From: Escherichia phage vB_EcoM_LNA4
Sequence record: MZ311864.1
Length of the DNA: 64,000 nt
Reading direction: 5' to 3' (one strand)
Below, piece after piece: positions 1 to 26,049 of the stretch (positions are counted from its first letter, which is position 1; the number at the start of each line of letters is the position of its first letter). The notes beneath the pieces were generated by a model. The model was not told where the DNA came from. It did not search any database and saw only the letters and a program-made list of their open reading frames with translations. Made by a program: the position numbers and the translations under genes.

Positions 1-629
1 TTTCCTGCGGATAGCCCCTCCAAGAACTTCTTACCGATTAAATACGCATCGGCGTAGTCAGCCTTTCCTGCTGCAAGAGTAACACCGTCTAACCACCCCG
101 GATAGTCGTAATCAACGGCCTTAACCATCATGGCTTTGTCCATCTTAACTTTGGAGCGTGATGATACCATTTTATTCTTCTTTTTGTCAAGCTTTTCCTT
201 AGTTACCCACTGCTCTTCCTCTGGAAGGAGGCTACGGGCAAAAGACTTAACAGAAGTCGGTGCAACAGTATGGATGTTAAAGTATTCAATAAAGTGATTA
301 CCACAACCATCCAAGCTAAGGGCAATGCAGTAGAACAGACCTGCAAGGTCCCTTGTGGCACTACCAATAGACCCAAGACTCAGTGCTTCCATCACATAAT
401 CATCTGGAGAATACTCAGTACACAGTTCATTTATCCTTTTACAGATATGCTCGATCTGCTCATAAACGGTGTCAAAGTAGTAAACTTCCGGGTTTTGCTT
501 TCCCTTGCTCTTGGTAGAACCAGTCCTGATCATCTCCCGATAAATAGGAGTCCCATCACTCCAGATAACAACGGCACAATGGGACAAAGACTGATCAACA
601 GACATCAAAACATAAGGGAACTCACTCAT
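1..629 (-). CDS. RNase H-fold nuclease, RuvC-like putative Holliday-junction resolvase (3' end beyond window start)
   Basis: Minus-strand ORF starting at ATG 629-627, checked codon by codon and open to position 1 (>208 codons). N-terminus MSEFPYVLMSVDQS. with Asp/Glu spacing reminiscent of RuvC. Absent from the supplied ORF track because it has no stop in the window. Confidence 0.3.
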   Translation of the reverse strand, partial: MSEFPYVLMSVDQSLSHCAVVIWSDGTPIYREMIRTGSTKSKGKQNPEVYYFDTVYEQIEHICKRINELCTEYSPDDYVMEALSLGSIGSATRDLAGLFYCIALSLDGCGNHFIEYFNIHTVAPTSVKSFARSLLPEEEQWVTKEKLDKKKNKMVSSRSKVKMDKAMMVKAVDYDYPGWLDGVTLAAGKADYADAYLIGKKFLEGLSAG

Positions 630-927
630 CTTTCCCGTCCACAGCATTCTCACGGAAAAGAACCAAGGAGCACTCAAGGTCACCGTAGGCAACACTTGTC
701 AACAGTAGCAACTTCTCTCCCTCAACAAGCTCACAGTCATTAAGAAGCAGGACTGTAAAGGCCTTATCTGGGTCAATGAAATCGTCTGTGAAGACAACAT
801 AGTCTCCGTGATCGGTTTCCAGCATTCTCCAAATACCTGTTCCGACCATGAACTTAGGTTTCAGAGAAGAAACAGCGAGGGCCTTAGAGTCCCTCATTAC
901 TGCTTCCATGATCATCCCGTCAATCAT
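622..927 (-). CDS. hypothetical protein
   Basis: Track ORF 622..1020 trimmed to the internal ATG at 927, which overlaps the TGA stop of the exonuclease gene (ATGA). Confidence 0.4.
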   Translation of the reverse strand: MIDGMIMEAVMRDSKALAVSSLKPKFMVGTGIWRMLETDHGDYVVFTDDFIDPDKAFTVLLLNDCELVEGEKLLLLTSVAYGDLECSLVLFRENAVDGKDE

Positions 928-2057
928 AAAACCCCCACACGGCGAAGCTCTGTACTCAAGGTGGTGTGATCGTTGGCAGTACGCTTCATATAGACCATCT
1001 GGAAGATGATTGAAGCCCACTGACCAGCACTCATTTTACGATGAGTCCCGTCCCACGAGGTAAACTCCACCCCGTTAGGGAACCAGGTTTTGTACTGGTC
1101 AACAATCGCAGTCCACATATCCTTTTCAGTCTGAAGGTGACCGATCAGGTTGAATGCAGCAGTATCCCCAAAACGCCCGGAGATATCGAATGACTGATAA
1201 GGTTTGATGTTGTCTGAGCTATCACCGCAGAGCATCTGGTAGCCAAAGAACTTACGTCCCCAGCCCTTGACCTTGTTACCTTCCATCCAAATCTCTCCCA
1301 TAGAATCATCAATGATCATTGGGATAGGGTGTTTCCATGTTTTCTCTTCGCTGTCACGCATAGTGTCAAAAAGAAGACCCGGCGTTCCCTTCTGGTCCTT
1401 ATCGAAGGATGCAACCATGTAGTTGAACTTGCCAGTGGCCTGGTAGAACTCCCACCCGGTGTTCATTAGCACAGACAGGTAATCGTCTGCCTCAACGCCG
1501 TCAATCACCTTGGCCTTGTACTTCTTCTTAACATATTCGCGTGTTTCCTGCAACAGCTTAGGACGCAGGGTGTCTTCACGGTTGCCCTTATAACGCTCAG
1601 GTGCCGGAAGTAACAGACGGAAGTTGTTTTCACCACCAAGAACACCCATCCCGTATTGGTTGTCCATTTCAAGGTGTTCAAAGATCGCATTGATCTTAGT
1701 TTTCAGGATGTGCAGGCAGTTTTCAACAGGCTCTGGAGTCTGAATGTCCTCAATCAGGAAGTCATCTCTTCCCCACGGAGTAAATTCACGTCCTTCTGCC
1801 TTTGCCTTGATTTCCATATTGGCGTTCTGGTCTTTCAACCAACCGCCTACCACCCTTTTGGTGGAACCCCAGAATTCTGTTCTGTTTTTGAAGATCTTTT
1901 CCCTGCCAGAAGCAATGTGCGTTGCCTTAATCGTGCGCTTCTCAGCGCCAGCAGCAGACACAAAGCAAGTTTGGTCAAGGTCTAAAGCGATCACACAGTC
2001 ATTCGTGACTTTATTTTTCCAATCTTTATCATACGGATATCCCACTAGCCCTCTCAA
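924..2057 (-). CDS. 5'-3' exonuclease / flap endonuclease (FEN-like)
   Basis: 377-aa ORF with IALDLDQT and GVEADDY acidic motifs typical of the 5'-3' exonuclease family. Confidence 0.55.
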   Translation of the reverse strand: MRGLVGYPYDKDWKNKVTNDCVIALDLDQTCFVSAAGAEKRTIKATHIASGREKIFKNRTEFWGSTKRVVGGWLKDQNANMEIKAKAEGREFTPWGRDDFLIEDIQTPEPVENCLHILKTKINAIFEHLEMDNQYGMGVLGGENNFRLLLPAPERYKGNREDTLRPKLLQETREYVKKKYKAKVIDGVEADDYLSVLMNTGWEFYQATGKFNYMVASFDKDQKGTPGLLFDTMRDSEEKTWKHPIPMIIDDSMGEIWMEGNKVKGWGRKFFGYQMLCGDSSDNIKPYQSFDISGRFGDTAAFNLIGHLQTEKDMWTAIVDQYKTWFPNGVEFTSWDGTHRKMSAGQWASIIFQMVYMKRTANDHTTLSTELRRVGVL

Positions 2058-2545
2058 TCGTTACTCAAATACTCGTCCAAATACCGGACATCCAGTTCCC
2101 ATTCCTCTCGCTTACTCCGTTCATGATACAAGGCAAATGCCTCGCTAACGTACTTCTCTGCGACCTGTCTGGAGACACCGTTCACCTTCATGAAGTGACG
2201 AAGGGCGATCTCTCCTCTTCCACGAATACCAGCAAGGCCGATATGTTTTACTTCGTGACATGACGGGCAGAGCGCGATAAGACCTTTCAGCGTTATCTTA
2301 CCATTACCAAAGTCCCAGATTTCGTGACACTCAACAGGGTGCTTATTCCCTTTACCACCACAAATCTCACATCTGTAATTGGCTTTGGCATAGCATTTCT
2401 TTCTTACGACATCCCATTGGGATTTAGTGAGGTGAGAGCGTAAGTTAGTAAACCAAGCTGTTTTCGGAACCAGTTCAATCTCTAATTTCAATTCACCTCC
2501 ACGAAGCTGCGATAACGACATCAATTGCTCTTTCCCAGCATTCAC
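2054..2545 (-). CDS. HNH-type endonuclease (Cys/His zinc-finger nuclease)
   Basis: CEICGG...HPVECHEIWDF...CPSCHEVKH arrangement; start may be a later Met because of the overlap with the downstream ORF. Confidence 0.45.
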   Translation of the reverse strand: MNAGKEQLMSLSQLRGGELKLEIELVPKTAWFTNLRSHLTKSQWDVVRKKCYAKANYRCEICGGKGNKHPVECHEIWDFGNGKITLKGLIALCPSCHEVKHIGLAGIRGRGEIALRHFMKVNGVSRQVAEKYVSEAFALYHERSKREEWELDVRYLDEYLSND

Positions 2546-3005
2546 CGAGAAGATTTAATCCTTGCCAGTTGGCAGGATCATCAATGCGTGTATCATATTC
2601 ATTCATTTTAACTCCCCAGATTGCGTCATATGGGGATGCCTCTACAAAGCGACGACCAGCATCTCTGTGGGTCAGTGCTGCCTCAAGGATGGATCGATTC
2701 GCCTTCATTTTCAGAACAAGACCGTTTGTTACAATGTCCATCCGGTTTTCTTCCCAGACACTATTGTCAAAGTCCCTGACTTTACGGCCCAGCGCTTTTG
2801 CCTCATTTGGATTATTAACCGTGGCAATACGTGCAGCAATCTCTTTATCATCAAAGAGCATTGCTTTCTGGAACATCATAAAGTGCTCAACCGTGAAGAA
2901 TTCATAGCCACCACAACGGATAGGGATTACCTGACGGAAGTGGTTGCTGAACATATCACGGTAAGTGAAGAAGAAAACATGCTTATCAGTTATTCTCATC
3001 ACCAA
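2493..3005 (-). CDS. NADAR (YbiA-like) domain protein
   Basis: MFSNHF, EHFMMFQKA, DAIWG and NLLGECWERA motifs resemble the YbiA/NADAR family. Confidence 0.6.
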   Translation of the reverse strand: MVMRITDKHVFFFTYRDMFSNHFRQVIPIRCGGYEFFTVEHFMMFQKAMLFDDKEIAARIATVNNPNEAKALGRKVRDFDNSVWEENRMDIVTNGLVLKMKANRSILEAALTHRDAGRRFVEASPYDAIWGVKMNEYDTRIDDPANWQGLNLLGECWERAIDVVIAASWR

Positions 3006-3010
3006 ACCTC

Positions 3011-3205
3011 TTAGTGGAATGTCTTTTTAGACGGACATGAACCAGCACCTTCTTTCACAACGCTCTCGGTACGATTACCGTCGCTGTAGATGCAGACTTT
3101 GGAGCTTCCATCAGTGTATTCATCCACCAAAGAAAGTGTGTTGACTGTGGCGAATGCCTGGGAAGAGAGCAGCGCTGCTGCTAAAAGAATTGTTGTGCGG
3201 ATCAT
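3011..3205 (-). CDS. small secreted protein
   Basis: 64-aa ORF with N-terminal signal-peptide-like segment MIRTTILLAAALLSSQAFA. Confidence 0.4.
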   Translation of the reverse strand: MIRTTILLAAALLSSQAFATVNTLSLVDEYTDGSSKVCIYSDGNRTESVVKEGAGSCPSKKTFH

Positions 3206-3268
3206 TTTGTATCTCCTTTATTAAGTTGAGACCCGATAATAATCTATCACCGGGCCTTTTGTCAACTC

Positions 3269-4159
3269 TTATTTACCTGCTGGCAGGGTAACGAATGGGG
3301 TCTGAGAGCCGCTGGTCATGTAGACTGGGGTCACACCGTTCCACTTGTTAATTGCTTCCAGTTGCATAATCTCTGGGTTTTTGCGGAGAGAATCACCACG
3401 AAGTTGGATGGATTCTGCTTCACCTTTTGCCAGCGCTACTTTAGCATCGGCTTCACCCTGAGCTTGCAGTCGCTTAGATTCAGCTTCACCGCGAGCGGCT
3501 TCGATCTGTTTCTGAGCTTCAGCTTTGGTCTGCTGGATTTCGTTTTCACGCAGCAGTGCTTTCTGAGTCGCTTCGATCTTCGCGTTGATGGACGCTGTTA
3601 CCTGTGGTGGGTAACGCAGGTCATCAGTGTAAGACAGTTTCACGATCACGATACCAATTGGGTCAAGTTTCGCTTTCAGCGTTTTCGTCACACGATCCAG
3701 AAGCTGAGATTTACCATCACCAGCCAGCGTACCGATATCCATCGTACCCGCTTCTTTGATCAGTGCATCAGAGATGTTCTGACGAATGTTTACATCAGTG
3801 ATTTCCTGAACACCTTTACGGTAAGTCTGGAAGATCTTGGTGACCTTAGAGCGGTCAACGTAGTATTCAACACCAACCTTCGCAGAGACTGTCATGGAGT
3901 CTTTGGTCTGGAAGTTAAACGGCTGGTCGTAGTTGTTCAACTGATTGAACGTTGGGAACTGATAGATCTCTTCGTTCCATGTCAGCCAATATTTACCAAC
4001 ACCGACTTCCTGTTGCTGAACGCCCTTCTCATCGCCGTACAGGTCAACCTTGACACCAACGTAACCTGCCGGGACGGTTGCACGTTCACAACCTGTCAGG
4101 CCAATTGCACCCAGAGCGATCAGGCCAGCGAAAACTACACGTTTGATATTCTTAAGCAT
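3269..4159 (-). CDS. SPFH/band-7 (prohibitin-like) lipoprotein
   Basis: Lipobox LTGC after a signal sequence, then an SPFH-like domain and an Ala/Glu/Gln-rich coiled coil. Confidence 0.5.
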   Translation of the reverse strand: MLKNIKRVVFAGLIALGAIGLTGCERATVPAGYVGVKVDLYGDEKGVQQQEVGVGKYWLTWNEEIYQFPTFNQLNNYDQPFNFQTKDSMTVSAKVGVEYYVDRSKVTKIFQTYRKGVQEITDVNIRQNISDALIKEAGTMDIGTLAGDGKSQLLDRVTKTLKAKLDPIGIVIVKLSYTDDLRYPPQVTASINAKIEATQKALLRENEIQQTKAEAQKQIEAARGEAESKRLQAQGEADAKVALAKGEAESIQLRGDSLRKNPEIMQLEAINKWNGVTPVYMTSGSQTPFVTLPAGK

Positions 4160-4299
4160 TGGTTTGGTTCTCCTCTTTGATTTTGTATTCAGTTTTTACA
4201 GTTTGGTCAACGTGATCGTCAACAATTTTCGCTACCAAGGCAGCGGCAGACTTATTTCTGGACCGGGCCAGATGCTGCAACTTTTCCCAGGTAGATGCT

Positions 4300-4503
4300 T
4301 TAAGATTTAGTAGCATCTAAGCCTCCACGTTTAAAGAACACTTTACGGACCCAATACCACACAACCGCCGGGGCTGAGAACACCAGGGCGAAACCGCCGA
4401 TAACGCCCAGTGTATCTTTAGCAGAAACTAAAGTTGGTACTGCGAACCCGAAGATGAAGCAAAGGAAAACAAATAAGCCAACACCATTCAGGTAATATTT
4501 CAT
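4300..4503 (-). CDS. small membrane protein
   Basis: 67-aa ORF with two hydrophobic helices. Confidence 0.4.
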   Translation of the reverse strand: MKYYLNGVGLFVFLCFIFGFAVPTLVSAKDTLGVIGGFALVFSAPAVVWYWVRKVFFKRGGLDATKS

Positions 4504-4838
4504 TATTGAGCACCTTCCGCAGCGGCTGGTTTGCCACGACCAAACAGAATATCTGCTTCGGTCATCTGCTCAACCTGCTCCTCAAGGTTTTTACGCTTTT
4601 TACCAGCCTGATACTGACGGTCAAACTCTGCTGCTACCAGCGTTTTGATGAATTTAGGATCGTAGTTGTGGCTGTCCTTTTCTACCGCAACGATGTCCTT
4701 GAACTGGCTCGCCGCATCTTTCTGGGCGATCTTCGCATCAACACCTTCCTGAATTACTTTCTTCAGGCGATCACGCTCTACTGGGTCAGAAGGCAGGGTG
4801 TTTTTCAGTTCTACTTTGATTTTAGGCATACGTGGCAT
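4503..4838 (-). CDS. hypothetical protein
   Basis: 111-aa ORF in the co-directional minus-strand gene string. Confidence 0.4.
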   Translation of the reverse strand: MPRMPKIKVELKNTLPSDPVERDRLKKVIQEGVDAKIAQKDAASQFKDIVAVEKDSHNYDPKFIKTLVAAEFDRQYQAGKKRKNLEEQVEQMTEADILFGRGKPAAAEGAQ

Positions 4839-4906
4839 AGTTTTGTTTCTCCTCTGTTTGTTTAGTCTGTTCAGTATAACTACTTAATTCTTTTTGTCAA
4901 ACACTT

Positions 4907-5152
4907 TTAATCAATGCCGACAATCTTTCCACCAGAACGCTCAATCTGAGCAATATACGCATCCAGTGTTCCGAGTGTACACTCATAGGCGTACTTCTTC
5001 TCACCACCCCAACGACGCTTCATTGTGAAGCGAATCACGTATTTTCTACGCGGCAATGGAGACACCGAGCTTTGGTCAATGCTGATTTTAACATTCAAAC
5101 GCTTTGCCAGTTCACGGAGGTCACTAAAGACCTTTTCAACATCTTCGTTCAC
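4907..5152 (-). CDS. hypothetical protein
   Basis: 81-aa ORF in the minus-strand gene string. Confidence 0.35.
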   Translation of the reverse strand: MNEDVEKVFSDLRELAKRLNVKISIDQSSVSPLPRRKYVIRFTMKRRWGGEKKYAYECTLGTLDAYIAQIERSGGKIVGID

Positions 5153-5206
5153 TTATTTCTCCTCTCTGTCTTGATAGGGGTCATTATACAGACCCCTTAT
5201 TCATTG

Positions 5207-5896
5207 TCAAGCAATAATTTTCGGACTTTCGAAAGTGCTTGGCTTCATGATCTTGCCATTGTTGTCGAAGAACACAAGGCGCGGATCTGTCGAGCTAGGG
5301 TCTTTGGCATTATACACCTTATGGCATCTAACACCAGAGTAACGACCATTAGACCTGTCCTCAATTGCTTTGCACTCCAGACGAAGAGCTTCATTATGCT
5401 CTTTATCAGGCCATAGGGCAAGAACATCCTGAAGATACGGATACTTCGTATCGTTAGAGTGTAAAACCTGCTGCATGTTGTAGTCAAGATTAATATCAAG
5501 ACGATAGCACAATGCAGTCACCAGCTTCAGTACATAAACAGGATCTTGCATGTTGCCATACAGGTTGTGTTCAAGATCACCAATGGTAAACGTCAATGTT
5601 GGTGAAGGAGTACAAGCCTCACGAAGATACTCAGGGCTTTTCAACTGACAAGCATATGAGGCCACAACAAAGAGATCACAGGCAGCATCAATAGTTTCAA
5701 TGCGATCTCCAACACGGAGTGCATCAACAAGTTCGTTGAATTCTTCGCGAATAAAGCCCCATTGCAGATCAAATGGTGTTGCTACATTGTTCCGAGCACG
5801 ATATGCAACATGGTTCCATTCAATCACATGCTCCGCGTATGCGTACAGATCTGATGGTTTTGTCATCGCTAAAAGTGTTTCGTAAACCTTACTCAT
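5207..5896 (-). CDS. hypothetical protein (possible all-alpha NTP pyrophosphohydrolase)
   Basis: 229-aa ORF; REEFNELVDAL...IDAACDL segment loosely resembles MazG-type EExxE/D motifs (weak). Confidence 0.3.
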   Translation of the reverse strand: MSKVYETLLAMTKPSDLYAYAEHVIEWNHVAYRARNNVATPFDLQWGFIREEFNELVDALRVGDRIETIDAACDLFVVASYACQLKSPEYLREACTPSPTLTFTIGDLEHNLYGNMQDPVYVLKLVTALCYRLDINLDYNMQQVLHSNDTKYPYLQDVLALWPDKEHNEALRLECKAIEDRSNGRYSGVRCHKVYNAKDPSSTDPRLVFFDNNGKIMKPSTFESPKIIA

Positions 5897-5905
5897 TGAT
5901 TCTCC

Positions 5906-6277
5906 TTAATTAATTACATCTGTTGCGTGATCACCTTCCGGTTGGTCACGAATAATTCTTAATGGCAAAAGAGCGCCGTTCTTAGCTACGAACAGGCATT
6001 TGTCGCCATATGTCCCATTCTTGTACCAAGAATAAGAAGTGTTAACCTTGTAGGCCATGCCGTCGAATTGACAGGTCATGGTGTTCCACAACGGTTTGGT
6101 AAGGGCCAGCGTTACCAGGCCCAACACAACAGCCCAAATCAACAGCATACGTTTCACCTTTCCCTGAATCCAGTCAATGAAATCGTCAAGCTTGTCTTTC
6201 CGGAAACGGTAGGCGATATAAATACCGCCCCCGGTTAACAGTGTTGCTCCAAAGAGCGCCAGCCAATACCAGATCAT
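5906..6277 (-). CDS. membrane protein
   Basis: 123-aa ORF with N-terminal hydrophobic helices. Confidence 0.4.
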   Translation of the reverse strand: MIWYWLALFGATLLTGGGIYIAYRFRKDKLDDFIDWIQGKVKRMLLIWAVVLGLVTLALTKPLWNTMTCQFDGMAYKVNTSYSWYKNGTYGDKCLFVAKNGALLPLRIIRDQPEGDHATDVIN

Positions 6278-6741
6278 TATGCACGTACCTCTGTTACCTT
6301 CACGGTTGCTTCACCGCGAAGCTGGATGTTAGAACCATCATCGAGAGTGAGAATGATATCGTCGCCACTGATTTTGTGACCCTTAACGACATAATCTTTA
6401 CCCCACATCTCTACCTTATCGCCCATCACGACATTTTTCGCCTTGTAATCACCAGGCAGGCGATCTTCATCGCTAACCGCTTCGTAAAGGTCGCTAAAAG
6501 CCTGTGGAGACATTGCTGTGAACTGATCGCCCACCTTTACAATGTAATCGCCTGGAAACGCCTGAACGCCGTTAACGTCCATATTTCGGATATCCCGTGT
6601 ATGGATCTCAGAATCTTTCCATACCCCGGTCTCGATCCACTTGGTCACTTGACCAACCCCGGTGCTAGACCCATTGAATACGTGTGCTTCAACCTCTTGA
6701 GGTTTACGACTATAGAATCCCATTAGTAGACTGGCTCCCAT
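6277..6741 (-). CDS. hypothetical protein
   Basis: 154-aa ORF, stop/start abutting its neighbours. Confidence 0.4.
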   Translation of the reverse strand: MGASLLMGFYSRKPQEVEAHVFNGSSTGVGQVTKWIETGVWKDSEIHTRDIRNMDVNGVQAFPGDYIVKVGDQFTAMSPQAFSDLYEAVSDEDRLPGDYKAKNVVMGDKVEMWGKDYVVKGHKISGDDIILTLDDGSNIQLRGEATVKVTEVRA

Positions 6742-8027
6742 GTTAATGTGTTAAGTTCACGTACACTCTGCCCCACTGGGAACTGAGGTACACCATCATC
6801 AGTACGCGACTGGAATGTAAAGTTGATGAAACCACCAACCAACAGCAACATCTTCGCCTGAGAACGTTCTGCGTGTGTGCCTTTCATTTTACAGTTGAAT
6901 CGTGTTCCGTCCTGTTCTTCGCAAAGCAGAACACCTTCACCATTTTTGTCCTCTACAGAATCAAGGACTTTGGCCTCACCGTCCTGGAACAGCTTCCATT
7001 TCTGGAGATCAGTGGATCGCTGCCCGAACTCATATTTACCTTTGAAGTTTCGGATGATAACACCCTCAAACCCGGCTTCCATGTAATAACCGATAAAGCG
7101 TTTCACAGATGCTTCGTCTTTCACGAACTCGCCATGAACGATAGCAATCTTAGGAACATCAATCTCACATTCTACAGCTTCAGCCACAGCATTAAGATCA
7201 GCCATACGGGTTTGATCATGATCCTGAGAGTGCCAAGGACTGTGTGCATTCACTGGAATATCAAAGATATGATACTCAAGGTCAAGACTCGAATAACCGC
7301 TATAACGATCAACATCCTTCACAGGTTTATACGTTGAAACAGCCCACACGTTACCGTCAAAGTCTTTCCAGAGGTGTTCCCCTGCTGCAACCGCCTTGTT
7401 GTAACGCTTGATATCTGCTTGATAATCTTTTTCGATCTCAGCTTCAATCTGCTCAGGTGTACGCCACTTCTTAGCGAGAGCAACAATCTTCTGTAGACTC
7501 AGGCCATGAATATACAGTTCCCCATCGAACTTGTCAAACCCGGAATGCTCTGCAAGTTCTTTAACCTGTTGCAAAAGAGCACCCTGCACTGGATACGTCT
7601 TATTACCACGGCTATTGAACACTGGAATGCCGTCCTTGTCAAGCGTGACAAGAGCACGAACGCCGTCGAGCTTTGGCTGCACATAGGCAGGATAAACGAT
7701 AGCTGAAAATCGTTTGATCGCATCATGCGCCAGCATAGGAGAGAAGTTCTCTTCCGTCTGCAACTCTTCCTTAGTCTCACGATAACCTAAACGGACTTGC
7801 TTTTCCCATTTGGATCTTGCTTCAAGAACCGCTTGGAATACGGCAGTAGTCTCATTGGAACGGCCAATGTTTTTCATTTCACACTTGGTACGCTTTTGTT
7901 GAATCTTTCCGTTTTCCTTACCGAAAGAAACGACAACCTCATCACCTTCTGTGGTTACATTCCAAACTTGGTACGATCCGTCTTTGTTGAGAGCGTACAG
8001 TGTTGGTGTGTCTAAACTAATTGACAT
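6723..8027 (-). CDS. ATP-dependent DNA ligase
   Basis: KLDGVR adenylation motif I, EGVIIRN motif IV and LQKWK motif V in a 434-aa protein. Confidence 0.7.
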   Translation of the reverse strand: MSISLDTPTLYALNKDGSYQVWNVTTEGDEVVVSFGKENGKIQQKRTKCEMKNIGRSNETTAVFQAVLEARSKWEKQVRLGYRETKEELQTEENFSPMLAHDAIKRFSAIVYPAYVQPKLDGVRALVTLDKDGIPVFNSRGNKTYPVQGALLQQVKELAEHSGFDKFDGELYIHGLSLQKIVALAKKWRTPEQIEAEIEKDYQADIKRYNKAVAAGEHLWKDFDGNVWAVSTYKPVKDVDRYSGYSSLDLEYHIFDIPVNAHSPWHSQDHDQTRMADLNAVAEAVECEIDVPKIAIVHGEFVKDEASVKRFIGYYMEAGFEGVIIRNFKGKYEFGQRSTDLQKWKLFQDGEAKVLDSVEDKNGEGVLLCEEQDGTRFNCKMKGTHAERSQAKMLLLVGGFINFTFQSRTDDGVPQFPVGQSVRELNTLTWEPVY

Positions 8028-8803
8028 TATTTCTCCTTCTTCTGTAAAGGCGTTTTTCCTTCAAGGTGGTCTTCAACCATCTTGATTAAACCGGGATTGC
8101 TGAAAGCATCAACAGCACCTGTACGATAAACGATAACACCCGCATCTTCATACATCAACTGCTCATCATAGCGAACACCGGGGTTAACAACCACCACCTT
8201 TGTTCCTCTCATGACAGCAGGGAAAAGTTCCCAGTTGAAGTTGATCACTGTGTTTGAACATCCAACCACAATCACCATATCCTCAGATGTCAAGCTGTCC
8301 AAGGTTGAGTATAGCTGCCCGTATGCAGGCGCAGTTTCACCAAAAAAGATAACGTTAGGCTTACACCAACCATAATCATCTGGGTCAATCTGCTCATAAC
8401 CAACATCAATGATCTTTTTAGGTGATCCAGCCTCAGTCTCAATCACCAACTCTTTCAGATAACCATGAATATAAAGCGTATCTTCTTTAGGAACACCTGC
8501 ACGTTCCAATAGATCATCAACGTTAGTTGTCAAGTTAATAACCTGGTTCGGATAGTTTTTATACCACTCTGCCACACGCATATGTGCAGCATTAGGATGC
8601 ACAGTTTGCAGTTCTGCACGACGCTTGTTATAAAAGGTGTGCGTCTTATGGTAAAAATTACCACGAAAGGCATGAATGTTGCAGACCTCTTCAAGGTCAT
8701 ACTCATCCCACAAGGCCTTACCGGAGTCGGTGTCAGTACGGAATGTACGAACACCGCTCTCAGCAGAGAAACCAGCACCACTAATTACATATAAACGCCT
8801 CAT
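8027..8803 (-). CDS. Sir2-family (sirtuin-like) NAD-dependent protein
   Basis: GAGFSAESGVRTFR, TTNVDDLLERAG and IHG motifs match Sir2 NAD-binding and catalytic signatures. Confidence 0.6.
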   Translation of the reverse strand: MRRLYVISGAGFSAESGVRTFRTDTDSGKALWDEYDLEEVCNIHAFRGNFYHKTHTFYNKRRAELQTVHPNAAHMRVAEWYKNYPNQVINLTTNVDDLLERAGVPKEDTLYIHGYLKELVIETEAGSPKKIIDVGYEQIDPDDYGWCKPNVIFFGETAPAYGQLYSTLDSLTSEDMVIVVGCSNTVINFNWELFPAVMRGTKVVVVNPGVRYDEQLMYEDAGVIVYRTGAVDAFSNPGLIKMVEDHLEGKTPLQKKEK

Positions 8804-9018
8804 GGATTAACCACCTCGCTAATAGCCCTCATTGCCCCATTATGGCCTTGGCAACGCTCATCAATACCTTTCATGTAGCAAATTTTACTTGCAACACGAT
8901 AGTTAGCGAACTGCCAAGCCTGCCATGCTGCTGTTTTCGCAGCGGGTTCTTCCCACGGGTGGGCGAGAGAGTTCCACCAATTTTCGAACTCAACCCACTG
9001 CATGTTTTCTTTGTTCAT
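8800..9018 (-). CDS. hypothetical protein
   Basis: 72-aa ORF overlapping the Sir2 start by 4 nt. Confidence 0.35.
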   Translation of the reverse strand: MNKENMQWVEFENWWNSLAHPWEEPAAKTAAWQAWQFANYRVASKICYMKGIDERCQGHNGAMRAISEVVNP

Positions 9019-9024
9019 TATTCC

Positions 9025-9909
9025 TCACTGTAATTTCAATGAGTTACGCAGACGACGCTCTTGAGCATCACGGGTTTCCTGCGGAACGCTGTGAATAGAA
9101 TCATTGCCATGACGGTTCTCTACCACCAAGCTAATGACGCGATACCCATTCTCGGCTGCGAGGTCGAGGTATGGTTTCAGTTCTTTTTCACTGGTAGAGG
9201 TGTTAGACACGATGATCCTACGGAAATTCCAACCCATCATGTCCTTAACTTCTGACTGGCACCATGTGTGTGCCGCCTGAATATTCTCAGGTTTCCAGTC
9301 ATAAACACCATCTTCCGTATAGTGGAATTTATCTGCTTCACAGACAGGCCACAAACCCTCTGACAGCATCTTTCCCGTTGTCATATTACGAGCACCAATC
9401 AGATACGCACCAGGTTGTTCGTGAACTATATGCGGGTCAGAATCATCACAAATTTCAAACATTAAAGTCAAACAAGATTGCCCTACATGTGTCCACATGG
9501 ATGGGTGGTTTGCCTTTTCAACACCACTCAAAATATGAGTTTTTGCAATATCTGCAAATTCGGAATCAAGAGTTCCGGTGGTGGATACTAAAACATCGCC
9601 TTTATAAATTGAGGCCGCTGCCATAAAGCCATTAACTTTACGAGGTACACACACCAACTGGTCTCGTGGAACATCGGTATTATTCTCGAAGCGGTTGAAA
9701 ATCTTCGTGAAAGGCCAGATAACAACGTTGTCTTCTGCATCAACAACCATGCCACGGCACTCCAGAAGACGTGCGTCTGTGTGCCACAGGTTATCCCAGA
9801 ACACATTGTTCTTATATTTCAGAACAGACAGACCCGCGAACGGGCCTTCGGTATAAGTCTTTTTGGTTACAAGCTTTTTAGCAACAAGGTCATCTACGTT
9901 AAATTTCAT
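9025..9909 (-). CDS. hypothetical protein (KxNG nucleotidyltransferase-like motif)
   Basis: 294-aa ORF; PRKVNGF resembles ligase motif I, but the other ligase motifs are not convincing. Confidence 0.35.
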   Translation of the reverse strand: MKFNVDDLVAKKLVTKKTYTEGPFAGLSVLKYKNNVFWDNLWHTDARLLECRGMVVDAEDNVVIWPFTKIFNRFENNTDVPRDQLVCVPRKVNGFMAAASIYKGDVLVSTTGTLDSEFADIAKTHILSGVEKANHPSMWTHVGQSCLTLMFEICDDSDPHIVHEQPGAYLIGARNMTTGKMLSEGLWPVCEADKFHYTEDGVYDWKPENIQAAHTWCQSEVKDMMGWNFRRIIVSNTSTSEKELKPYLDLAAENGYRVISLVVENRHGNDSIHSVPQETRDAQERRLRNSLKLQ

Positions 9910-9918
9910 TTGTGTCCC

Positions 9919-10095
9919 CTACTTTTTCTTGAAGAATGACTGGATTATACATGCCTCACGGCGGCTGTCAATACTTTGTTCTGGCATTGATGCCGCTGTT
10001 ACAAGTTTAGCAACATCGCGCTTGTCGATGGAGCCATACGCACCAGAATCCATCATGAAGAAAATCTTATCTTGGGTAATTTTATGAACTTTCAT
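9919..10095 (-). CDS. small hypothetical protein
   Basis: 58-aa minus-strand ORF (MKVHKITQDK...) found by hand, with an AGAGAGGA Shine-Dalgarno upstream; not in the supplied track. Confidence 0.35.
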   Translation of the reverse strand: MKVHKITQDKIFFMMDSGAYGSIDKRDVAKLVTAASMPEQSIDSRREACIIQSFFKKK

Positions 10096-10113: not shown

Positions 10114-10509
10114 TTAACTACGCTTTTCGTAACCTTCTGCCTGATAGTAGGTAGTATTGTGCGGCGTTTCAATGCTAAAACTGATCTGGCAGAGTTCTTG
10201 GGCTAAGAATGTACCAAGTTCTACAGCCATGTCAAGGATTTCATGCTCAGGTCGCTCAAAGCGAGGATATTGCATGATCCGGACAGTCATACCGTCCTCA
10301 ACACCCCCGGTATACACGTAGGTACACGGGGAGATCTGCACACAAGCGCCCTTCATTACCCACTGGCGGCACAGGTTTTCAGCCTGATTGTAGTTCCCAG
10401 CGATGTGAATTGTTGCATAGAACGACTTAGAAGTCTTCTTTGGTAAAAAGTTACGTTTCTTATTGTGCATATTATTATCCGTGATCAGCAGTGTAAATTG
10501 GTTTAGCAA
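10114..10509 (-). CDS. hypothetical protein
   Basis: 131-aa ORF. Confidence 0.4.
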   Translation of the reverse strand: MLNQFTLLITDNNMHNKKRNFLPKKTSKSFYATIHIAGNYNQAENLCRQWVMKGACVQISPCTYVYTGGVEDGMTVRIMQYPRFERPEHEILDMAVELGTFLAQELCQISFSIETPHNTTYYQAEGYEKRS

Positions 10510-11071
10510 GGCACATCAGAACAGCTTCACGCATCGTCAAAGGACGACCATGCACATCCCAACCCACATCAAGAATACGTCCACCAGGGGCCGTGTAGGA
10601 GCCGTGGCTGTGACCGTGCAGCATTACCGACCCGTGGTGAGCTTTATTCCATGATGCAAACGGATAGTGGGACATACACACCTTCACCTTTTCTTTCCCG
10701 GTGCTGAACTCAATTTCCTTATAGTCCACGACTTCATGACCAAACTCACGGAAGATACGTTTTGTCTGATGGTTGTCATGATTACCACCAACCAGAATGA
10801 TCTTCCCATTGATACGGCTCAGGATATCACGAACTTTTGGCTCAACTTGCTTACCATAGGCAATAACGAAATCACCAAGGTGTGCCACCACATCGTCAGG
10901 CTTGACGTTTTTGTTCCACGTCTTAACCATGTCATCGTTCATTTTGACAACGGAGGCTGAGTCTTCTTTCGGACCATACAGGTTCTTACGGAACTTATCA
11001 CACGATGGGAAACCAAGAATGTTGGTGTGCCACCAGTGAGTGTCTGACGTGACGTGATCAATTTGAATCAT
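10475..11071 (-). CDS. calcineurin-like metallophosphoesterase (Ser/Thr phosphatase-like)
   Basis: DTHW, GDFV, GNHD and GHSHG metal-binding motifs. Confidence 0.6.
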   Translation of the reverse strand: MIQIDHVTSDTHWWHTNILGFPSCDKFRKNLYGPKEDSASVVKMNDDMVKTWNKNVKPDDVVAHLGDFVIAYGKQVEPKVRDILSRINGKIILVGGNHDNHQTKRIFREFGHEVVDYKEIEFSTGKEKVKVCMSHYPFASWNKAHHGSVMLHGHSHGSYTAPGGRILDVGWDVHGRPLTMREAVLMCLAKPIYTADHG

Positions 11072-12358: not shown

Positions 12359-12676
12359 ATGGGGTACATCGCGTCAGGTAAGCACATCTACGGTAACTTC
12401 GAACTGAAGTTGCTGTCGGTGACCTGCGCCTCGTCCAACGACAAGATTGTGTACCTCTACATGCGTCATCAGTATCACTACTTCAAGTCTCTCCGGAAAA
12501 CGTACCATGAGTCGCTTGACAGTATTGCTGATGCCACAGGATTATCGAGGGCAACTGTTGCCAGGTGTGTGAGCAACCTTGAAAAGATAAAGTGGTTGAC
12601 AAAGGACACAACACGCACCAATATGGGCCACAACAAAACGATTTACGAAATTCACAATTGGACAGAGGAGAAATAA
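12359..12676 (+). CDS. HTH DNA-binding protein (putative transcriptional regulator)
   Basis: SLDSIADATGLSRATVARCVSNLEK helix-turn-helix-like segment; GGAGGAG Shine-Dalgarno; first gene of the rightward arm. Confidence 0.45.
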   Translation: MGYIASGKHIYGNFELKLLSVTCASSNDKIVYLYMRHQYHYFKSLRKTYHESLDSIADATGLSRATVARCVSNLEKIKWLTKDTTRTNMGHNKTIYEIHNWTEEK

Positions 12677-12677
12677 A

Positions 12678-13490
12678 ATGAGTATTGAATTACGTTTGAA
12701 CAAACTGGTTGTTCCTGTAGACCACTTCACCTTTAAGGGTGGTGAGGAACAGGTCAAAATTGACCTAAAACACGCACCAAAAGGCGGTATTGGTTTCGTA
12801 GATATCACTGCCAAAATCAAAAATTCAACTGATGTCATGGCACTGGCTATGTTGGTGGATGCGTGTTCCCGTTTGGAAGGATTGCATAACCACGCAGAGT
12901 TCACCCTGCACCTTCCATACATCCCGTATGCACGTCAAGACCGTGTAATGAACCCAGGTGAAGCGTTATCTATTAAGGTTTTCGCAAACATTGTCAACTC
13001 GCTTGGTTTCGACACGGTTATCGTTGATGACCCGCACAGCGATGTCTCTGCTGCACTGCTCAATAACGTCCGTATCCGTGGTCAGGATGTTCTTATTTCC
13101 GAGATGAAAGATCTTGGCAACTCCACATTGCATAGCAACTCTTTGGTTGTGGTAGCACCTGATGCGGGTGCTCGCAAGAAAGCCCATAAGGTTGCTGACC
13201 GATTCAGTCTTCCTCTTGTTGAGGCTGGTAAAGTACGTGATTTGCAGACCAACGAAATCACTGGTACTGCGGTGTTCGGAGATGTTGAAGGTAAAGTGTG
13301 TATGATTGTTGATGATATCTGCGACGGTGGTCGTACATTCATCGCCCTTGCACAGGCCCTGAAAGAAAACGGTGCGAAACGTGTTATCCTGTACGTTACT
13401 CACGGTATCTTTTCTTTCGGTAAACAGGTCATCCTCGATGGTGGGGTTGATGAAATCTATGCGTATCATGACTGGACGGAGAATTTTTAA
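12678..13490 (+). CDS. ribose-phosphate pyrophosphokinase-family enzyme (Prs-like; candidate Adps)
   Basis: YARQDR and PRPP-binding loop MIVDDICDGGRT, VVAPDAGA; 270 aa. Confidence 0.7.
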   Translation: MSIELRLNKLVVPVDHFTFKGGEEQVKIDLKHAPKGGIGFVDITAKIKNSTDVMALAMLVDACSRLEGLHNHAEFTLHLPYIPYARQDRVMNPGEALSIKVFANIVNSLGFDTVIVDDPHSDVSAALLNNVRIRGQDVLISEMKDLGNSTLHSNSLVVVAPDAGARKKAHKVADRFSLPLVEAGKVRDLQTNEITGTAVFGDVEGKVCMIVDDICDGGRTFIALAQALKENGAKRVILYVTHGIFSFGKQVILDGGVDEIYAYHDWTENF

Positions 13491-14023
13491 TGACTGAATC
13501 AACAAGTTTTATTTTTGTTGTCGATACAGATTCCTATGCTGGTAATTTTGAGCGTGACATGTGCGCTCATATCACCGGGCAGATTGGTGAATGCGGTGTT
13601 GGTGCAGAGTACCGCCCCGATATTGAAGACCTAAAAGAAGACCATTACGATTTTGATCTCGAAAAAATCTGTGAGTGGTTAGAAAATAATGTTCTCCAGG
13701 TTCCAGATGAACACGCCTGCTATCGCCCATGTGCGATTTACCCAACACCGGGGCGTACAAACAACGGCGGTGGTGTGCATTCTGATGTGACCGCAAATAA
13801 TCCATTCAAGTGGCCTGCATACGAAAGTGTAGCTATCTACATCCGTGAAGAACCACCTGAAGATGTGGTACGTTTCATGGTCATCCGTGCTAACACTTTC
13901 TATATTCGTGCGACCAAGTGGTCACCAGCAAAAGAAATCAAGGTAAAAGGTTGCAGATTGGTTAAAGAAACGACAACTGTGAAAACAGAATCGAAATCTT
14001 TAGACTTTTCACTTGACATCTAA
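13490..14023 (+). CDS. hypothetical protein
   Basis: 177-aa ORF between the Prs-like and NadV-like genes, ATG overlapping the upstream stop. Confidence 0.45.
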   Translation: MTESTSFIFVVDTDSYAGNFERDMCAHITGQIGECGVGAEYRPDIEDLKEDHYDFDLEKICEWLENNVLQVPDEHACYRPCAIYPTPGRTNNGGGVHSDVTANNPFKWPAYESVAIYIREEPPEDVVRFMVIRANTFYIRATKWSPAKEIKVKGCRLVKETTTVKTESKSLDFSLDI

Positions 14024-14076: not shown

Positions 14077-15762
14077 ATGCTTAATCAAGAAAGTCCTATC
14101 CTGTTTGCAGACTTTTACAAACCTTCACACATCTCCATGTATGATAAACGTTCTGAAATTGTTCAGGACAACATGACTCCGCGTAACGCGAAGCATTTCA
14201 TTCACTTTGCTGATAATGACAAGCGTGTCATGTTCGCAGGCATCCAAGGTTTTATTAAGTGGTTCCTGATCGATATGTTCAACAATAACTTCTTCAATCT
14301 TCCGAAAGAAGAGGCTGTTGCTGATTATCGTGAGGTTTGCGATTCAAGTATCGGCATCGGTATGGTTGAAACATGGGGCTTTGAGGCGCTTCATGATCTT
14401 GGCTATCTTCCTCTTGAAATTCGTGCTCTTCCAGAGGGAACACTGTCTCCTGTTCAGGTTCCAATGTTCACAATCCAGAACACGCACCCTGATTTTTACT
14501 GGTTACCGAACTTCTTGGAAAGCGTGATTTCAGCAGAAACCTGGAAAACTATCACAACTGCAACTACCTTCTGGCAGTATCGTAAACTGTCTGAAGCATG
14601 GGCTGCTGAAACCTGTGATAACAATCTGCACGTTCCATTCCAGAACCACTGCTTCGCATATCGCGGTGAATCTGGTACTCACGATGCAGCACAGAGCGAG
14701 TTTGGTCAACTGATCAACTCAATGGGTACAGACACTATTCCTGCGATTCTGTATGCTCGCCGTTATTACAACATGAAAGGTAAGTTTGTTGCCGGGTCTA
14801 TCCCAGCATCAGAACACAGTGTTGCTACAACCAACATCGGCTTCATCGTTGGTCGCCTGAAAACAGAACATCCTGATTTGTCTCTGGATGAACTGCGTTT
14901 CCTGGCTGAAGTTGAATTCCTGAAACGCTACATCACGGAAATTTTCCCGAAAGGTTTTGTTTCCTACGTAGCAGACAGCTATGACTTCTGGGCGATTATT
15001 ACTCGTGCAGCACTGATTCTGAAAGAAGAGATCATGGCGCGTGACGGTCGTGTTGTATTCCGTCCTGATTCAGGCATCCCAGAGCATATTATTGCTGGTT
15101 ATCGTTGTTATGGTGATTTCTTAAATGAAGATAATCTTCTTGAAGAACTGTCTTTAGATAAGGATTCGAAAGCGGAGGTTGTTATTTTAAAAGGGAAATA
15201 TTATTTCCTTGACCGTGATGAGAATAGCCATATCTGTGGCATTGGTAATGAGCTTACTCGCCACGAGGCTGTTGGTGCTGTTCAGTGCCTGTGGGATATC
15301 TTTGGTGGTGAAGTTAACTCCAAAGGCTATAAAGTTCTGGATACGCATGTAGGGTTAATCTATGGTGACTCGATTACCGTTGCCCGTGCAAAAGATATCT
15401 TTGAGCGTCTGAGAGATCGTGGTTTTGCATCCAGCAATATCGTATTTGGTGTTGGCTCTTTCACGACACAGTACACAACCCGTGATTCACTGGGTATGGC
15501 TGTGAAGGCAACTGGTGCGGTTATTGATGGTCAGCAGATCATGGTTGTCAAAGAACCGAAGACTGATCTCGGCAAGAAATCTGCAAAAGGTTTCCTGAAG
15601 GTTGTTCGTGATGATAATGGCGAACTGAGACTGGTTGACAATTGTCAGCTTGAAGATGTACAGTCTGACGATAACGAACTGCGTCGTGTGTTCTACAACG
15701 GCAAACTGATTGTCGATGAAGACCTGACAACGATTCGTGAACGAGCAGCCGCTCAACTGTAA
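14077..15762 (+). CDS. nicotinamide phosphoribosyltransferase-family enzyme (NadV-like; candidate Namat)
   Basis: 561-aa protein with RPDSG and GSIPASEHS Nampt-like motifs; AAGGAG Shine-Dalgarno. Confidence 0.7.
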   Translation: MLNQESPILFADFYKPSHISMYDKRSEIVQDNMTPRNAKHFIHFADNDKRVMFAGIQGFIKWFLIDMFNNNFFNLPKEEAVADYREVCDSSIGIGMVETWGFEALHDLGYLPLEIRALPEGTLSPVQVPMFTIQNTHPDFYWLPNFLESVISAETWKTITTATTFWQYRKLSEAWAAETCDNNLHVPFQNHCFAYRGESGTHDAAQSEFGQLINSMGTDTIPAILYARRYYNMKGKFVAGSIPASEHSVATTNIGFIVGRLKTEHPDLSLDELRFLAEVEFLKRYITEIFPKGFVSYVADSYDFWAIITRAALILKEEIMARDGRVVFRPDSGIPEHIIAGYRCYGDFLNEDNLLEELSLDKDSKAEVVILKGKYYFLDRDENSHICGIGNELTRHEAVGAVQCLWDIFGGEVNSKGYKVLDTHVGLIYGDSITVARAKDIFERLRDRGFASSNIVFGVGSFTTQYTTRDSLGMAVKATGAVIDGQQIMVVKEPKTDLGKKSAKGFLKVVRDDNGELRLVDNCQLEDVQSDDNELRRVFYNGKLIVDEDLTTIRERAAAQL

Positions 15763-15788: not shown

Positions 15789-15801
15789 TGATAGGTACAC
15801 T

Positions 15802-16113
15802 ATGGAAAATCCATGCAAATGGCATGAAGTCCCAGTACGAGATTGCCTTACGTGTAATAACACACCAACAAACCCGTATTATATTAAGGAGCCTAAGATG
15901 TTTGGACCAGTAATGATGGAATGTAAAGTCTGCAAAGAAGAATTCGAGGCAGATCTCGAAGCCCACGGGCCAGGTGTTTGCATCATTTCCTTTGGTTGTG
16001 GACATACAATGCACGCAACAAAGACAGAAACCCGCTGGGTAAACACGAAAACGGGGAACGTTGACCTCGTTGAGACAGAAAAACAGATTAAGGGGTCCGA
16101 TTTCAGTGCGTAA
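15802..16113 (+). CDS. small Cys-rich protein
   Basis: 103-aa ORF with CxxC pairs. Confidence 0.35.
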   Translation: MENPCKWHEVPVRDCLTCNNTPTNPYYIKEPKMFGPVMMECKVCKEEFEADLEAHGPGVCIISFGCGHTMHATKTETRWVNTKTGNVDLVETEKQIKGSDFSA

Positions 16114-25990: not shown

Positions 25991-26049
25991 TCAGGTTTCA
26001 TGGTAAACTACCTCCTATAGGCCAATTTAAGGCACAAAATGGAGGTCTT

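Follow-up and report, generated by a model that had tools for sequence, protein, structure and literature searches.

A probable AdfN-type NADAR protein and a phage-clade sirtuin in the leftward gene block of Escherichia phage vB_EcoM_LNA4

Background

Escherichia phage vB_EcoM_LNA4 (sequence record MZ311864.1) encodes, within the stretch of 64,000 nucleotides analysed here and referred to as the window, a NADAR-domain protein and a Sir2-family protein, or sirtuin. Both genes belong to the leftward block on the minus strand, as had been stated in a preliminary description of this DNA, and their open reading frames (ORFs) were confirmed at 2493-3005 and 8027-8803, respectively. A Prs-like and a NadV-like gene were likewise found to exist on the plus strand (12678-13490 and 14077-15762). 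The preliminary description joined these four products into one NAD-linked toolkit for counter-defence or host takeover, and regarded the presence of Sir2 in a phage as unexpected, Sir2 being usually a defence effector of the host. The locus raises two questions: what the NADAR and Sir2 proteins do, and whether they form one system with the Prs/NadV pair.

Published work offers a reference for each part. Phages carry orphan NADAR proteins, called AdfN, which strip ADP-ribose from DarT1-modified DNA (Johannesman et al. 2025, PMC11825919). The majority of sirtuins from viruses group into a clade of their own (Iyer, Burroughs, Anantharaman and Aravind 2022, PMC9503650 section 3.7.3). Two enzymes of the NARP1 pathway, Adps and Namat, rebuild NAD+ from ADP-ribose and nicotinamide, and defeat in this way NAD-depleting defences (bioRxiv 10.1101/2024.02.11.579819).

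The best nucleotide matches of a 7.1-kb stretch of the window (2000-9100) identify its source as a lytic myophage of the genus Seunavirus (Vequintavirinae; rV5/PVP-SE1-like). Enterobacter phage EC152 covers 95% of the query at 91.5% identity and Cronobacter phage GAP31 85% at 93.7%; Escherichia phage 4MG and Salmonella phage PVP-SE1 come next. In EC152, the NADAR protein is 99.4% and the Sir2 protein 98.1% identical to that of the window. The NADAR homologue is labelled "NADAR family protein" in the RefSeq records of GAP31 and 4MG and "GTP cyclohydrolase II" in the EC152 record, while EC152, 4MG and PVP-SE1 label the sirtuin as "Sir2 (NAD-dependent deacetylase)" or "NAD-dependent protein deacetylase of SIR2 family". 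Both genes are real, and both have already been annotated and discussed in related phages.

We propose with moderate confidence a combined picture in which the NADAR is of AdfN type, the sirtuin belongs to the phage clade and most likely serves end healing, the Prs/NadV pair represents NARP1, and the three form separate modules.

Results

NADAR protein

Profile searches bore out the NADAR domain, both in Pfam (PF08719, E=2.6e-34, 119.3 bits with a cutoff of 35.1) and in PHROGs (phrog_1017, 2e-51). The ORF listed at 2493-3005 on the minus strand opens with TTG at 3005, but translation almost certainly starts from the ATG at 2999, placed seven bases 3' of a GAGG ribosome-binding site (RBS). Counted from this ATG, the stand-alone, YbiA-fold protein (2493-2999, minus strand) has 168 amino acids (aa), the same as GAP31_157.

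The earlier suggestion that such a protein reverses DarT-type ADP-ribosylation of guanine has gained experimental support from a phage homologue with 39% identity, AdfN^Bas60 (PMC11825919). This divergent NADAR of the phi92-like BASEL phages Bas60-62 neutralises DarT1 in E. coli, and restores plating of three DarTG1-sensitive phages, though not of T5 on DarTG2 (PMC11825919). Proteins of the AdfN^Bas60 type were located in the BASEL genomes EmilieFrey (Bas61), PaulScherrer and JohannJBalmer. VEcB gp135, which is 98.4-98.9% identical to the NADARs of these three phages, was used as a stand-in for AdfN^Bas60 in comparisons with the window protein. The two align over full length (E=2e-37), and their 39% identity denotes a relationship at the level of family, not of orthologues. 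T4-like phages were not seen among tblastn matches of the window NADAR, as far as the organism counts reach.

The nearest solved structure found with phmmer is the NADAR of Phytophthora nicotianae (PnNADAR) in complex with ADP-ribose (PDB 8BAU, E=4e-15). E. coli YbiA ranks next, with a much weaker match (E=8.6e-4), and the NADAR of G. lovleyi (8BAT) gave no match at E<0.01 in this search of PDB sequences. Residues E43, K50, E125, D130 and W133 of PnNADAR contact ADP-ribose or are catalytic (Schuller et al. 2023, PMC11543638), and the equivalents of E43, K50 and E125 have been shown by mutagenesis to matter (PMC11543638). Each of the five is matched by an identical residue of the window protein in the phmmer alignment, namely E38, K45, E120, D125 and W128 (numbered from the ATG). 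The first four are invariant in 35 diverse NADAR homologues, the AdfN^Bas60-type protein included. No gene for a DarT-like ADP-ribosyltransferase was detected beside the NADAR gene in the ORF list, in Pfam and PHROGs searches or in the GAP31 annotation.

By analogy with AdfN^Bas60, the window NADAR is most likely an orphan AdfN-type anti-DarTG1 DNA ADP-ribosylglycohydrolase. Extrapolating from the tested homologue, it would cut the N-glycosidic bond between ADP-ribose and guanine on DarT1-modified single-stranded DNA of the phage, and removal of ADP-ribose would restore phage replication in DarT1 hosts. The gene would be co-transcribed with nucleases of replication and repair, probably from an early promoter of sigma-70 type.

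Sir2 protein

The Sir2 gene (8027-8803, minus strand) codes for 258 aa, and its family assignment also held in profile searches: PF02146 was matched with E=9.9e-22 (78.2 bits, cutoff 24) and phrog_2162, "Sir2 (NAD-dependent deacetylase)", with 9e-110. Chance could not account for the profile matches of either protein. The top PDB sequence match is E. coli CobB (1S5P, E=4.6e-19), followed by Sir2Af1, Sir2Af2 and SIRT5. An AlphaFold2 model built from 75 homologues (pLDDT 89.7, pTM 0.88) has as its Foldseek neighbours CobB (E=2e-19, TM 0.76/0.83-0.86), Sir2Af1 and SIRT5, all of them class III deacylases. All seven NCBIfam equivalog models of CobB stay under their cutoffs (best score 112 bits, cutoff 243).

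Alignments of 20 and 75 sequences show several motifs with little or no variation: G9-A10-G11-x-S13, F21-R22, F57-Y58-N59-x-R61-R62, T93-N94-V95-D96, H113-G114, V151-x-F153-F154-x-E156, G181-x-S183 and N207. Of these, G9-A10-G11-x-S13, F21-R22, N94, D96 and H113 do not vary at all in the set of 75. The NAD+ pocket, the catalytic histidine and the acyl-lysine tunnel motif are therefore intact. Y58 and R61 align with Y92 and R95 of CobB, the class III pair binding acidic acyl groups (the CobB numbering was confirmed from engineered variants in PDB titles). Of the residues which the preliminary description had named for checking, the catalytic histidine (H113) is in place and the Zn-binding cysteines are absent.

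This absence is a character of the clade. In the 116 close homologues in which the HG...PxV motif could be located, the segment between HG and PxV contains no cysteine in 71 cases and one in 43, whereas many distant relatives in a representative set at 50% identity keep CxxC...CxxC around the same (I/V)GY motif. The Zn ribbon of the clade is accordingly degenerate and predicted to be Zn-less, with a small three-stranded sheet still present in the model. Another derived character is found at the NAD ribose site, where 120 of 120 clade members have Thr (TTN) in place of the Gln of TQN(I/V)D. The replacement tracks the loss of Zn ligands in wider relatives: 31 proteins combine Thr with no Zn site and 55 Gln with a Zn site, as against five with Thr and Zn and nine with Gln and no Zn. 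The clade is furthermore acidic, with a median pI of 5.1.

The clade is phage-specific and its sirtuins are class-III-like; their presence in a phage is not unexpected. A tblastn search placed homologues of the window protein in 997 of 50,697 phage records, and in 863 records the match spans 80% of the query or more. Their carriers include T5-like Demerecviridae, Vequintavirus, Justusliebigvirus, Vibrio phages and jumbo phages, and the proteins of rV5-like and T5-like phages show about 54-98% identity to the window Sir2. The family has its own named PHROG and was treated in the 2022 survey (PMC9503650). That computational survey was the only work returned by a literature search for experiments on phage-encoded sirtuins; a "phage Sir2" in the NARP3 paper was discarded as a further study, the wording there being "anti-phage Sir2-HerA". 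An annotation of PnuC beside Sir2 in the T5-like phage PSa2, considered as a possible NARP3 linkage, was likewise discarded, since it is a 65-aa fragment.

Nor does the protein resemble a defence effector. No PADLOC defence model matched it at E<=0.01; it is single-domain, and no gene for HerA, SLOG, pAgo or a partner Macro domain was seen nearby in the ORF list or by Pfam and PHROGs searches. A defence-type SIR2 NADase (ThsA, DSR, SIR2-HerA or SIR2-APAZ) was rejected for the missing PADLOC match together with the structural neighbours, which are deacylases. The sequence features of the window Sir2 predict a transferase or deacylase that consumes NAD+ rather than a NADase of defence type.

Association of the sirtuin with genes for end healing

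The survey of Iyer et al. described around Sir2 of "Escherichia phage V5" a T4-like tRNA ligase, cREC, a nucleotide kinase, MazG and a calcineurin-like phosphoesterase, and predicted computationally, from this neighbourhood, that phage sirtuins remove RNA 2'-phosphates in the manner of KptA/Tpt1 (PMC9503650). The linkage was reproduced independently here in several phages. In Vequintavirus AlexBoehm, RNA ligase, cREC (PF20274) and Sir2 stand in a row, adjoined by polynucleotide kinase (PNK) and phosphoesterase. The order in EC152 is RNA ligase, a 78-aa ORF, cREC, an AAA_33 kinase, Sir2 and DNA ligase, and it is similar in a metagenomic contig from JGI (L015). In T5-like phage SP15, Sir2 is followed by one small ORF and then by HAD_SAK_2 (PF18143). 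In a jumbo Erwinia phage, an NMNAT-NAMPT pair is closely followed by genes for an Acb1/2H-like protein, Sir2 and a Nudix-cREC fusion. In the window, the neighbourhood holds a MazG-like nucleotide pyrophosphohydrolase (5207-5896, minus strand; PF01503, E=2e-4, 22.1 bits with a cutoff of 21.3; phrog_671) and a calcineurin-like metallophosphoesterase (10475-11071, minus strand; PF00149, E=3.6e-8; phrog_547).

Gene linkage of this kind points, if tentatively, to healing of nucleic-acid ends as the most likely role of the window Sir2. A mechanism parallel to deacylation can reasonably be proposed: a phosphate oxygen, for example that of an RNA 2'-phosphate, would replace the acyl oxygen in the attack on C1'' of NAD+, freeing nicotinamide; the ribose 2''-OH, activated by the histidine, would then resolve the adduct as it does in Tpt1/KptA, while the Tyr/Arg pair would hold the anion (phosphate).

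The cluster in the Erwinia jumbo phage pEa_SNUABM_50 deserves a separate description. Its genes (positions 312-6171 of the piece examined) are co-directional and code for NMNAT, a 173-aa unknown protein, NAMPT, a membrane protein, an Acb1/2H-like protein (PF23474), a phage Zn-binding protein, Sir2 and a fusion of Nudix (Nudt16-like) and cREC. The sirtuin of this phage adjoins both NAD-salvage genes and genes for processing of cyclic phosphates.

Sir2 locus and a deletion in neighbouring genes

The Sir2 gene itself is intact and, from its junctions, translationally coupled on both sides. Its ATG overlaps (ATGA) the stop codon of a 72-aa ORF (8800-9018, minus strand), absent at this place in EC152 and present in L015; its own stop overlaps (TAATG) the ATG of an ATP-dependent DNA ligase (6723-8027, minus strand; PF01068 and PF14743).

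Next to the 72-aa ORF lies an ORF of 294 aa (9025-9909, minus strand) which, compared with EC152 and L015, is an in-frame fusion of an N-terminal part of RNA ligase and a C-terminal part of the AAA_33 kinase. Residues 1 to ~182 are RNA ligase, 78% identical to that of EC152 and with the KxNG motif kept, and the rest corresponds to the kinase from residue ~21 on; the junction is approximate and falls at a short "ML-E" stretch common to both parent proteins. Missing are about 1 kb with the C-terminus of the ligase, the 78-aa membrane ORF, the cREC gene and the GVSGAGKST P-loop of the kinase; the rest of the window was found to contain none of these. The lost ligase segments HHEGFVVRD and LLKIKSPHY are read as nucleotidyltransferase motifs IV and V.

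Such a fusion is not a natural architecture. Ligase and kinase halves were separate pieces, ~1.7 kb apart, in all 621 phage records with matches, and in L015, which is 95.9% identical over 4.7 kb and codes for an identical Sir2 protein, the ligase gene has kept its 3' end and is accompanied by the 78-aa ORF, cREC and the P-loop kinase. Because of these two observations, the fusion is best taken as a deletion of ~1 kb private to this genome or to its assembly. The opposite situation exists in GAP31, where RNA ligase, kinase and DNA ligase are present and a 75-aa ORF occupies the place of Sir2.

The space between DNA ligase and kinase is in fact a variable slot, which spans 8040-9021 in the window, 26040-26244 in the piece of GAP31 examined and 15797-15805 in that of EC152. 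It contains the 75-aa ORF in GAP31, Sir2 only in EC152, and Sir2 plus the 72-aa ORF in the window and L015. A perfect sigma-70 consensus (12/12, TTGACA-16-TATAAT) is found at 9944-9971 on the minus strand, upstream of the run of fusion ORF, 72-aa ORF, Sir2 and DNA ligase, and a second perfect one (12/12, TTGACA-16-TATAAT) at 5183-5210, also on the minus strand. Promoter-like matches in the region number 41, compared to 26.7 +/- 5.2 in shuffled sequences.

Prs/NadV pair

Both products of the pair have homologues among the characterised NARP1 enzymes of phage Bas63. The Prs-like protein (12678-13490, plus strand), with Prs domains of Pfam and NCBIfam, is 43% identical to Bas63 gp79 (E=2e-53) and is a probable Adps, or ADP-ribose (ADPR)-pyrophosphate synthetase. 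The NadV/Nampt-like protein (14077-15762, plus strand; PF04095; NF006629 with 481 bits) is 41% identical to Bas63 gp80 (E=2e-137) and a probable Namat. On these similarities, the pair is probably NARP1 and serves in counter-defence.

A 177-aa protein is encoded between the two genes (13490-14023, plus strand). In the published NARP1-AP operon this position belongs to Adpp, a Macro-domain (Poa1p-like) ADPR-1''-phosphate phosphatase. The 177-aa protein had no match in Pfam, NCBIfam or PADLOC, and its structural model (pLDDT 95.1) had no PDB neighbour in Foldseek, the best E-value being 0.12. Two distant homologues do not stand beside NARP1 genes. We therefore rejected its identity with Adpp, the model being confident and without a Macro match, and the distant homologues not being linked to NARP1.

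Directly upstream of the Adps-like gene, a winged-helix protein of 105 aa is encoded (12359-12676, plus strand). It has, among matches to other helix-turn-helix (HTH) families, a weak, sub-threshold match to the Pfam family "wHTH-PRTase associated" (PF24409, E=1.3e-4). A regulatory role connected with the NARP1 genes is possible for this protein.

Surroundings of the NADAR gene

The NADAR gene is tightly packed with those of two nucleases. Directly downstream is an HNH endonuclease (2054-2491, minus strand; phrog_5200, 4.5e-75; GAP31_155) with a probable TTG start, and the stop codon of NADAR falls between the RBS and the start of this gene. A 5'-3' exonuclease, similar to flap endonucleases, follows in the same putative operon (924-2057, minus strand; phrog_107, 5.5e-67; "exonuclease" in GAP31 and EC152). 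Upstream neighbours are a 64-aa protein with a signal peptide (secreted or membrane) and an SPFH lipoprotein. A sigma-70-like promoter match (11/12; 3236-3265, minus strand) precedes the run of 64-aa ORF, NADAR, HNH endonuclease and exonuclease; it comes from a consensus scan only, which is no proof of function. The SPFH/Band-7 lipoprotein gene just upstream of this unit (3269-4159, minus strand; PF01145, E=1.9e-21; phrog_200) is itself preceded by genes for small membrane proteins.

The window NADAR matches also a candidate defence component of PADLOC, PDC-M42C (E=8.7e-28), and, far under the cutoff, the NCBIfam model "NADAR family anti-phage protein" DS32_2. NADARs are therefore present on both sides of the conflict between phages and hosts.

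Discussion

Role of the sirtuin

For the window Sir2, we rank a role in healing of RNA ends first, with protein deacylation like that of CobB close behind. According to the latter, somewhat less likely alternative, Sir2 is a true protein lysine deacylase (a desuccinylase or deacetylase like CobB and SIRT5) that remodels acylation of host or phage proteins, and the end-healing genes are mere neighbours among early genes. CobB, Sir2Af1 and SIRT5 are indeed its best matches in both sequence and structure; H113, N94/D96, the tunnel motif PNV(I/V)FFGE and the class III pair Y58/R61 are invariant, and the biochemically characterised class III sirtuins are all deacylases (PMC8603916). An acidic pI would also fit protein substrates, and Sir2 is separable from the RNA-repair genes. 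Several points speak against deacylation: the Zn module, which contributes to substrate binding in CobB (PMC8603916), is without any ligands, the exchange of Gln for Thr at the NAD ribose site is fixed, and the protein scores far under all CobB equivalog cutoffs. Moreover, deacylation leaves unexplained the recurrent linkage to cREC, HAD_SAK_2 and RNA ligase in four lineages.

Several of the same observations count against end healing. The acidity of the clade (median pI 5.1) is unusual for an RNA-binding enzyme, and Sir2 keeps all features of class III lysine deacylases (VxFGE, Y/R) except for the Zn ligands and Gln. In Justusliebigvirus alia and in Vibrio phage D481, no RNA-repair domain could be recognised next to Sir2, and the two parts can be separated: GAP31 has ligase and kinase without Sir2, the window the reverse.

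A more specific idea, which we consider doubtful, extends end healing to the whole clade. Zn-less TTN phage sirtuins would catalyse a reaction as yet undemonstrated for sirtuins: in place of Tpt1, they would use NAD+ to remove a phosphate, for example an RNA 2'-phosphate, and the class III Tyr/Arg pair would bind phosphate rather than carboxylate. The products, nicotinamide and ADP-ribose cyclic phosphate, could be reopened by cREC-type enzymes and returned to NAD+ via NARP pathways, which are often nearby.

Substrate of the NADAR protein

The assignment of the window NADAR to the AdfN type has its own weak points. An identity of 39% to AdfN^Bas60 is no guarantee of the same substrate, and NADARs active in vitro may not protect in vivo (PMC11125620). 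The protein also passes the cutoff of the NCBIfam model for "riboflavin biosynthesis intermediates N-glycosidase" (TIGR02464), with 121.7 bits against 73.7; this model is a domain-level equivalog that cannot tell ADP-ribose-hydrolysing NADARs from others.

These points lead to an alternative which we regard as unlikely, namely that the NADAR acts not against DarTG1 but on another ADP-ribosylated base or RNA, on the product of another ADP-ribosyltransferase toxin, or on riboflavin intermediates as does E. coli YbiA. Besides the TIGR02464 score, it draws on the differing specificity of NADAR subfamilies in vivo (PMC11125620) and on reversal of cytidine ADP-ribosylation by NADARs, as reported in a 2026 paper (PMC12945103). 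A further point in its favour is the residue of the last strand that defines subfamilies. It is Glu in the window protein (FVEAS), as in YbiA and PnNADAR, rather than Asp as in DarT1-linked antitoxins, or His as in T4 gp30.3 (PMC11125620, PMC11543638). However, the tested AdfN^Bas60 type has Glu as well (FVEASPYD) and yet neutralises DarT1, and PnNADAR, the closest solved structure and also of the Glu type, hydrolyses guanine-ADPr (PMC11543638). Nor were riboflavin (rib) genes seen, as a fusion or in linkage, near the NADAR gene in the examined parts of the window or in the annotation of its relatives GAP31 and EC152. Action on DarT1-modified DNA thus remains our preferred function of the window NADAR.

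Separate modules

Of the four-function NAD toolkit suggested in the preliminary description, counter-defence by the Prs/NadV pair stands, given its 43% and 41% identity to NARP1 of Bas63; a joint toolkit does not, the grouping being loose and counter-defence by Sir2 via NAD metabolism unsupported. Judged from gene arrangement, NADAR, Sir2 and NARP1 are three independent modules, for DNA de-ADP-ribosylation, a sirtuin function and NAD+ reconstitution, and not one operon, because they lie on different strands and in different units, have unrelated genes between them, and are gained or lost separately in relatives.

We consider it improbable that the three cooperate, for example by recycling of Sir2 products (nicotinamide and ADP-ribose derivatives) through NARP1. 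They do lie within 13 kb, and Sir2 is found near NAD-salvage genes elsewhere, as in the jumbo Erwinia phage with NMNAT, NAMPT and then Sir2 with Nudix-cREC. E. coli CobB, too, forms complexes with Prs (bioRxiv 10.1101/2020.12.09.417477), and the phage encodes homologues of both. Against cooperation speak, apart from the opposite strands, different units and intervening genes, the relatives: GAP31 has NADAR and NARP1 without Sir2, Bas63 has NARP1 with no Sir2 annotated in the surrounding 26 kb, and Vequintavirus AlexBoehm has no annotated NARP1 genes within ~8 kb of Sir2. In the NARP1 literature examined, no sirtuin is listed among the components of the pathway. A functional tie, whether through NARP recycling of Sir2 products or an interaction like that of CobB and Prs, is thus possible but unsupported.

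The least probable proposal, that Sir2 is an NADase or macromolecular ADP-ribosyltransferase for host shut-off or superinfection exclusion, can appeal to the known ability of sirtuin domains to act as ADP-ribosyltransferases or NADases (PMC9503650) and to the altered chemistry that Gln-to-Thr exchange and Zn loss could mean, but no defence NADase model in PADLOC resembles the protein, no partner Macro domain or HerA gene is near it, and the phage rebuilds NAD+ via NARP1, which would oppose an NADase.

Implications

The window NADAR is an ordinary member of a recently characterised family of counter-defence proteins, and very probably an enzyme of this known kind; Sir2 is likewise typical of its phage clade, which is widespread and already described computationally, and represents a common phage gene of the deacylase-like branch rather than a captured defence effector. 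To the picture of this clade, the present work contributes the Zn-less/TTN signature, the preserved anion pocket and the natural uncoupling from RNA-repair genes. The sirtuin clade occurs in about 1000 sequenced phages, including models related to T5 and rV5. The marks of the clade (loss of Zn ligands, Gln replaced by Thr, a kept Tyr/Arg anion pocket and an acidic surface) offer handles for a test of deacylase against Tpt1-like activity, and natural variants that part Sir2 from the RNA-repair genes offer a second one.

Comparison with known systems

The window NADAR shares with AdfN^Bas60 its stand-alone form, similar length, N-terminus (MRITDK-VFFF) and last strand (FVEASPYD), as well as the catalytic E/K/E/D set and the absence of an adjoining toxin gene. 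The two differ in their phages, Justusliebigvirus in one case and Seunavirus in the other, and in gene neighbourhood. They differ also in the Trp of the DxxWG motif, which is kept in the window protein (DAIWG) and replaced by Tyr in the AdfN^Bas60 type (DSIYG in VEcB gp135). As the latter is active against DarT1 with Tyr at the W133 site of PnNADAR, Trp would not be essential for this activity. PnNADAR (8BAU) has the same fold and the same ADP-ribose-contacting residues as the window protein. NADAR antitoxins of DarG1 type have Asp in the last strand, an N-terminal extension and a gene next to DarT1, whereas the window NADAR, compared with DarG1 (BC4488-type), has Glu and neither extension nor toxin partner.

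The Prs/NadV pair resembles NARP1 (Osterman et al. 2024; Bas63 gp79/gp80) in its homologous enzymes and their order, and differs from it in the additional 177-aa gene between the two.

CobB and SIRT5 have in common with the window Sir2 the GAGxS, FR and N/D motifs, the catalytic His, VxFGE and the Tyr/Arg pair. In contrast to them, the phage protein lacks Zn cysteines, has Thr for Gln of TQNID, is acidic, scores far under the CobB cutoffs, and is borne by lytic phages beside genes for nucleic-acid end healing. Defence SIR2 NADases (ThsA, DSR1/2, SIR2-HerA, SIR2-APAZ) belong to the same superfamily and use NAD+ as well; unlike these, the window Sir2 is without a sensor or partner domain and is structurally nearest to deacylases.

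In the yeast tRNA splicing pathway, Tpt1 works together with repair of tRNA-ligase type. The chemistry proposed for the window Sir2 would be like that of Tpt1/KptA in NAD+-dependent removal of a 2'-phosphate, release of nicotinamide and the link to such repair. Tpt1 has an ART-like fold and Sir2 the Rossmann-type fold of sirtuins, so that the likeness is a functional analogy only. Finally, by its match to phrog_2162 the window protein falls into the phage sirtuin clade of Iyer et al. 2022, and relatives of the window possess the neighbourhood of rV5 type described there (tRNA ligase, cREC, kinase, MazG and calcineurin phosphoesterase). The window itself departs from it by the ~1-kb deletion, through which RNA ligase, cREC and kinase were deleted or fused, while MazG, phosphoesterase and DNA ligase remain.

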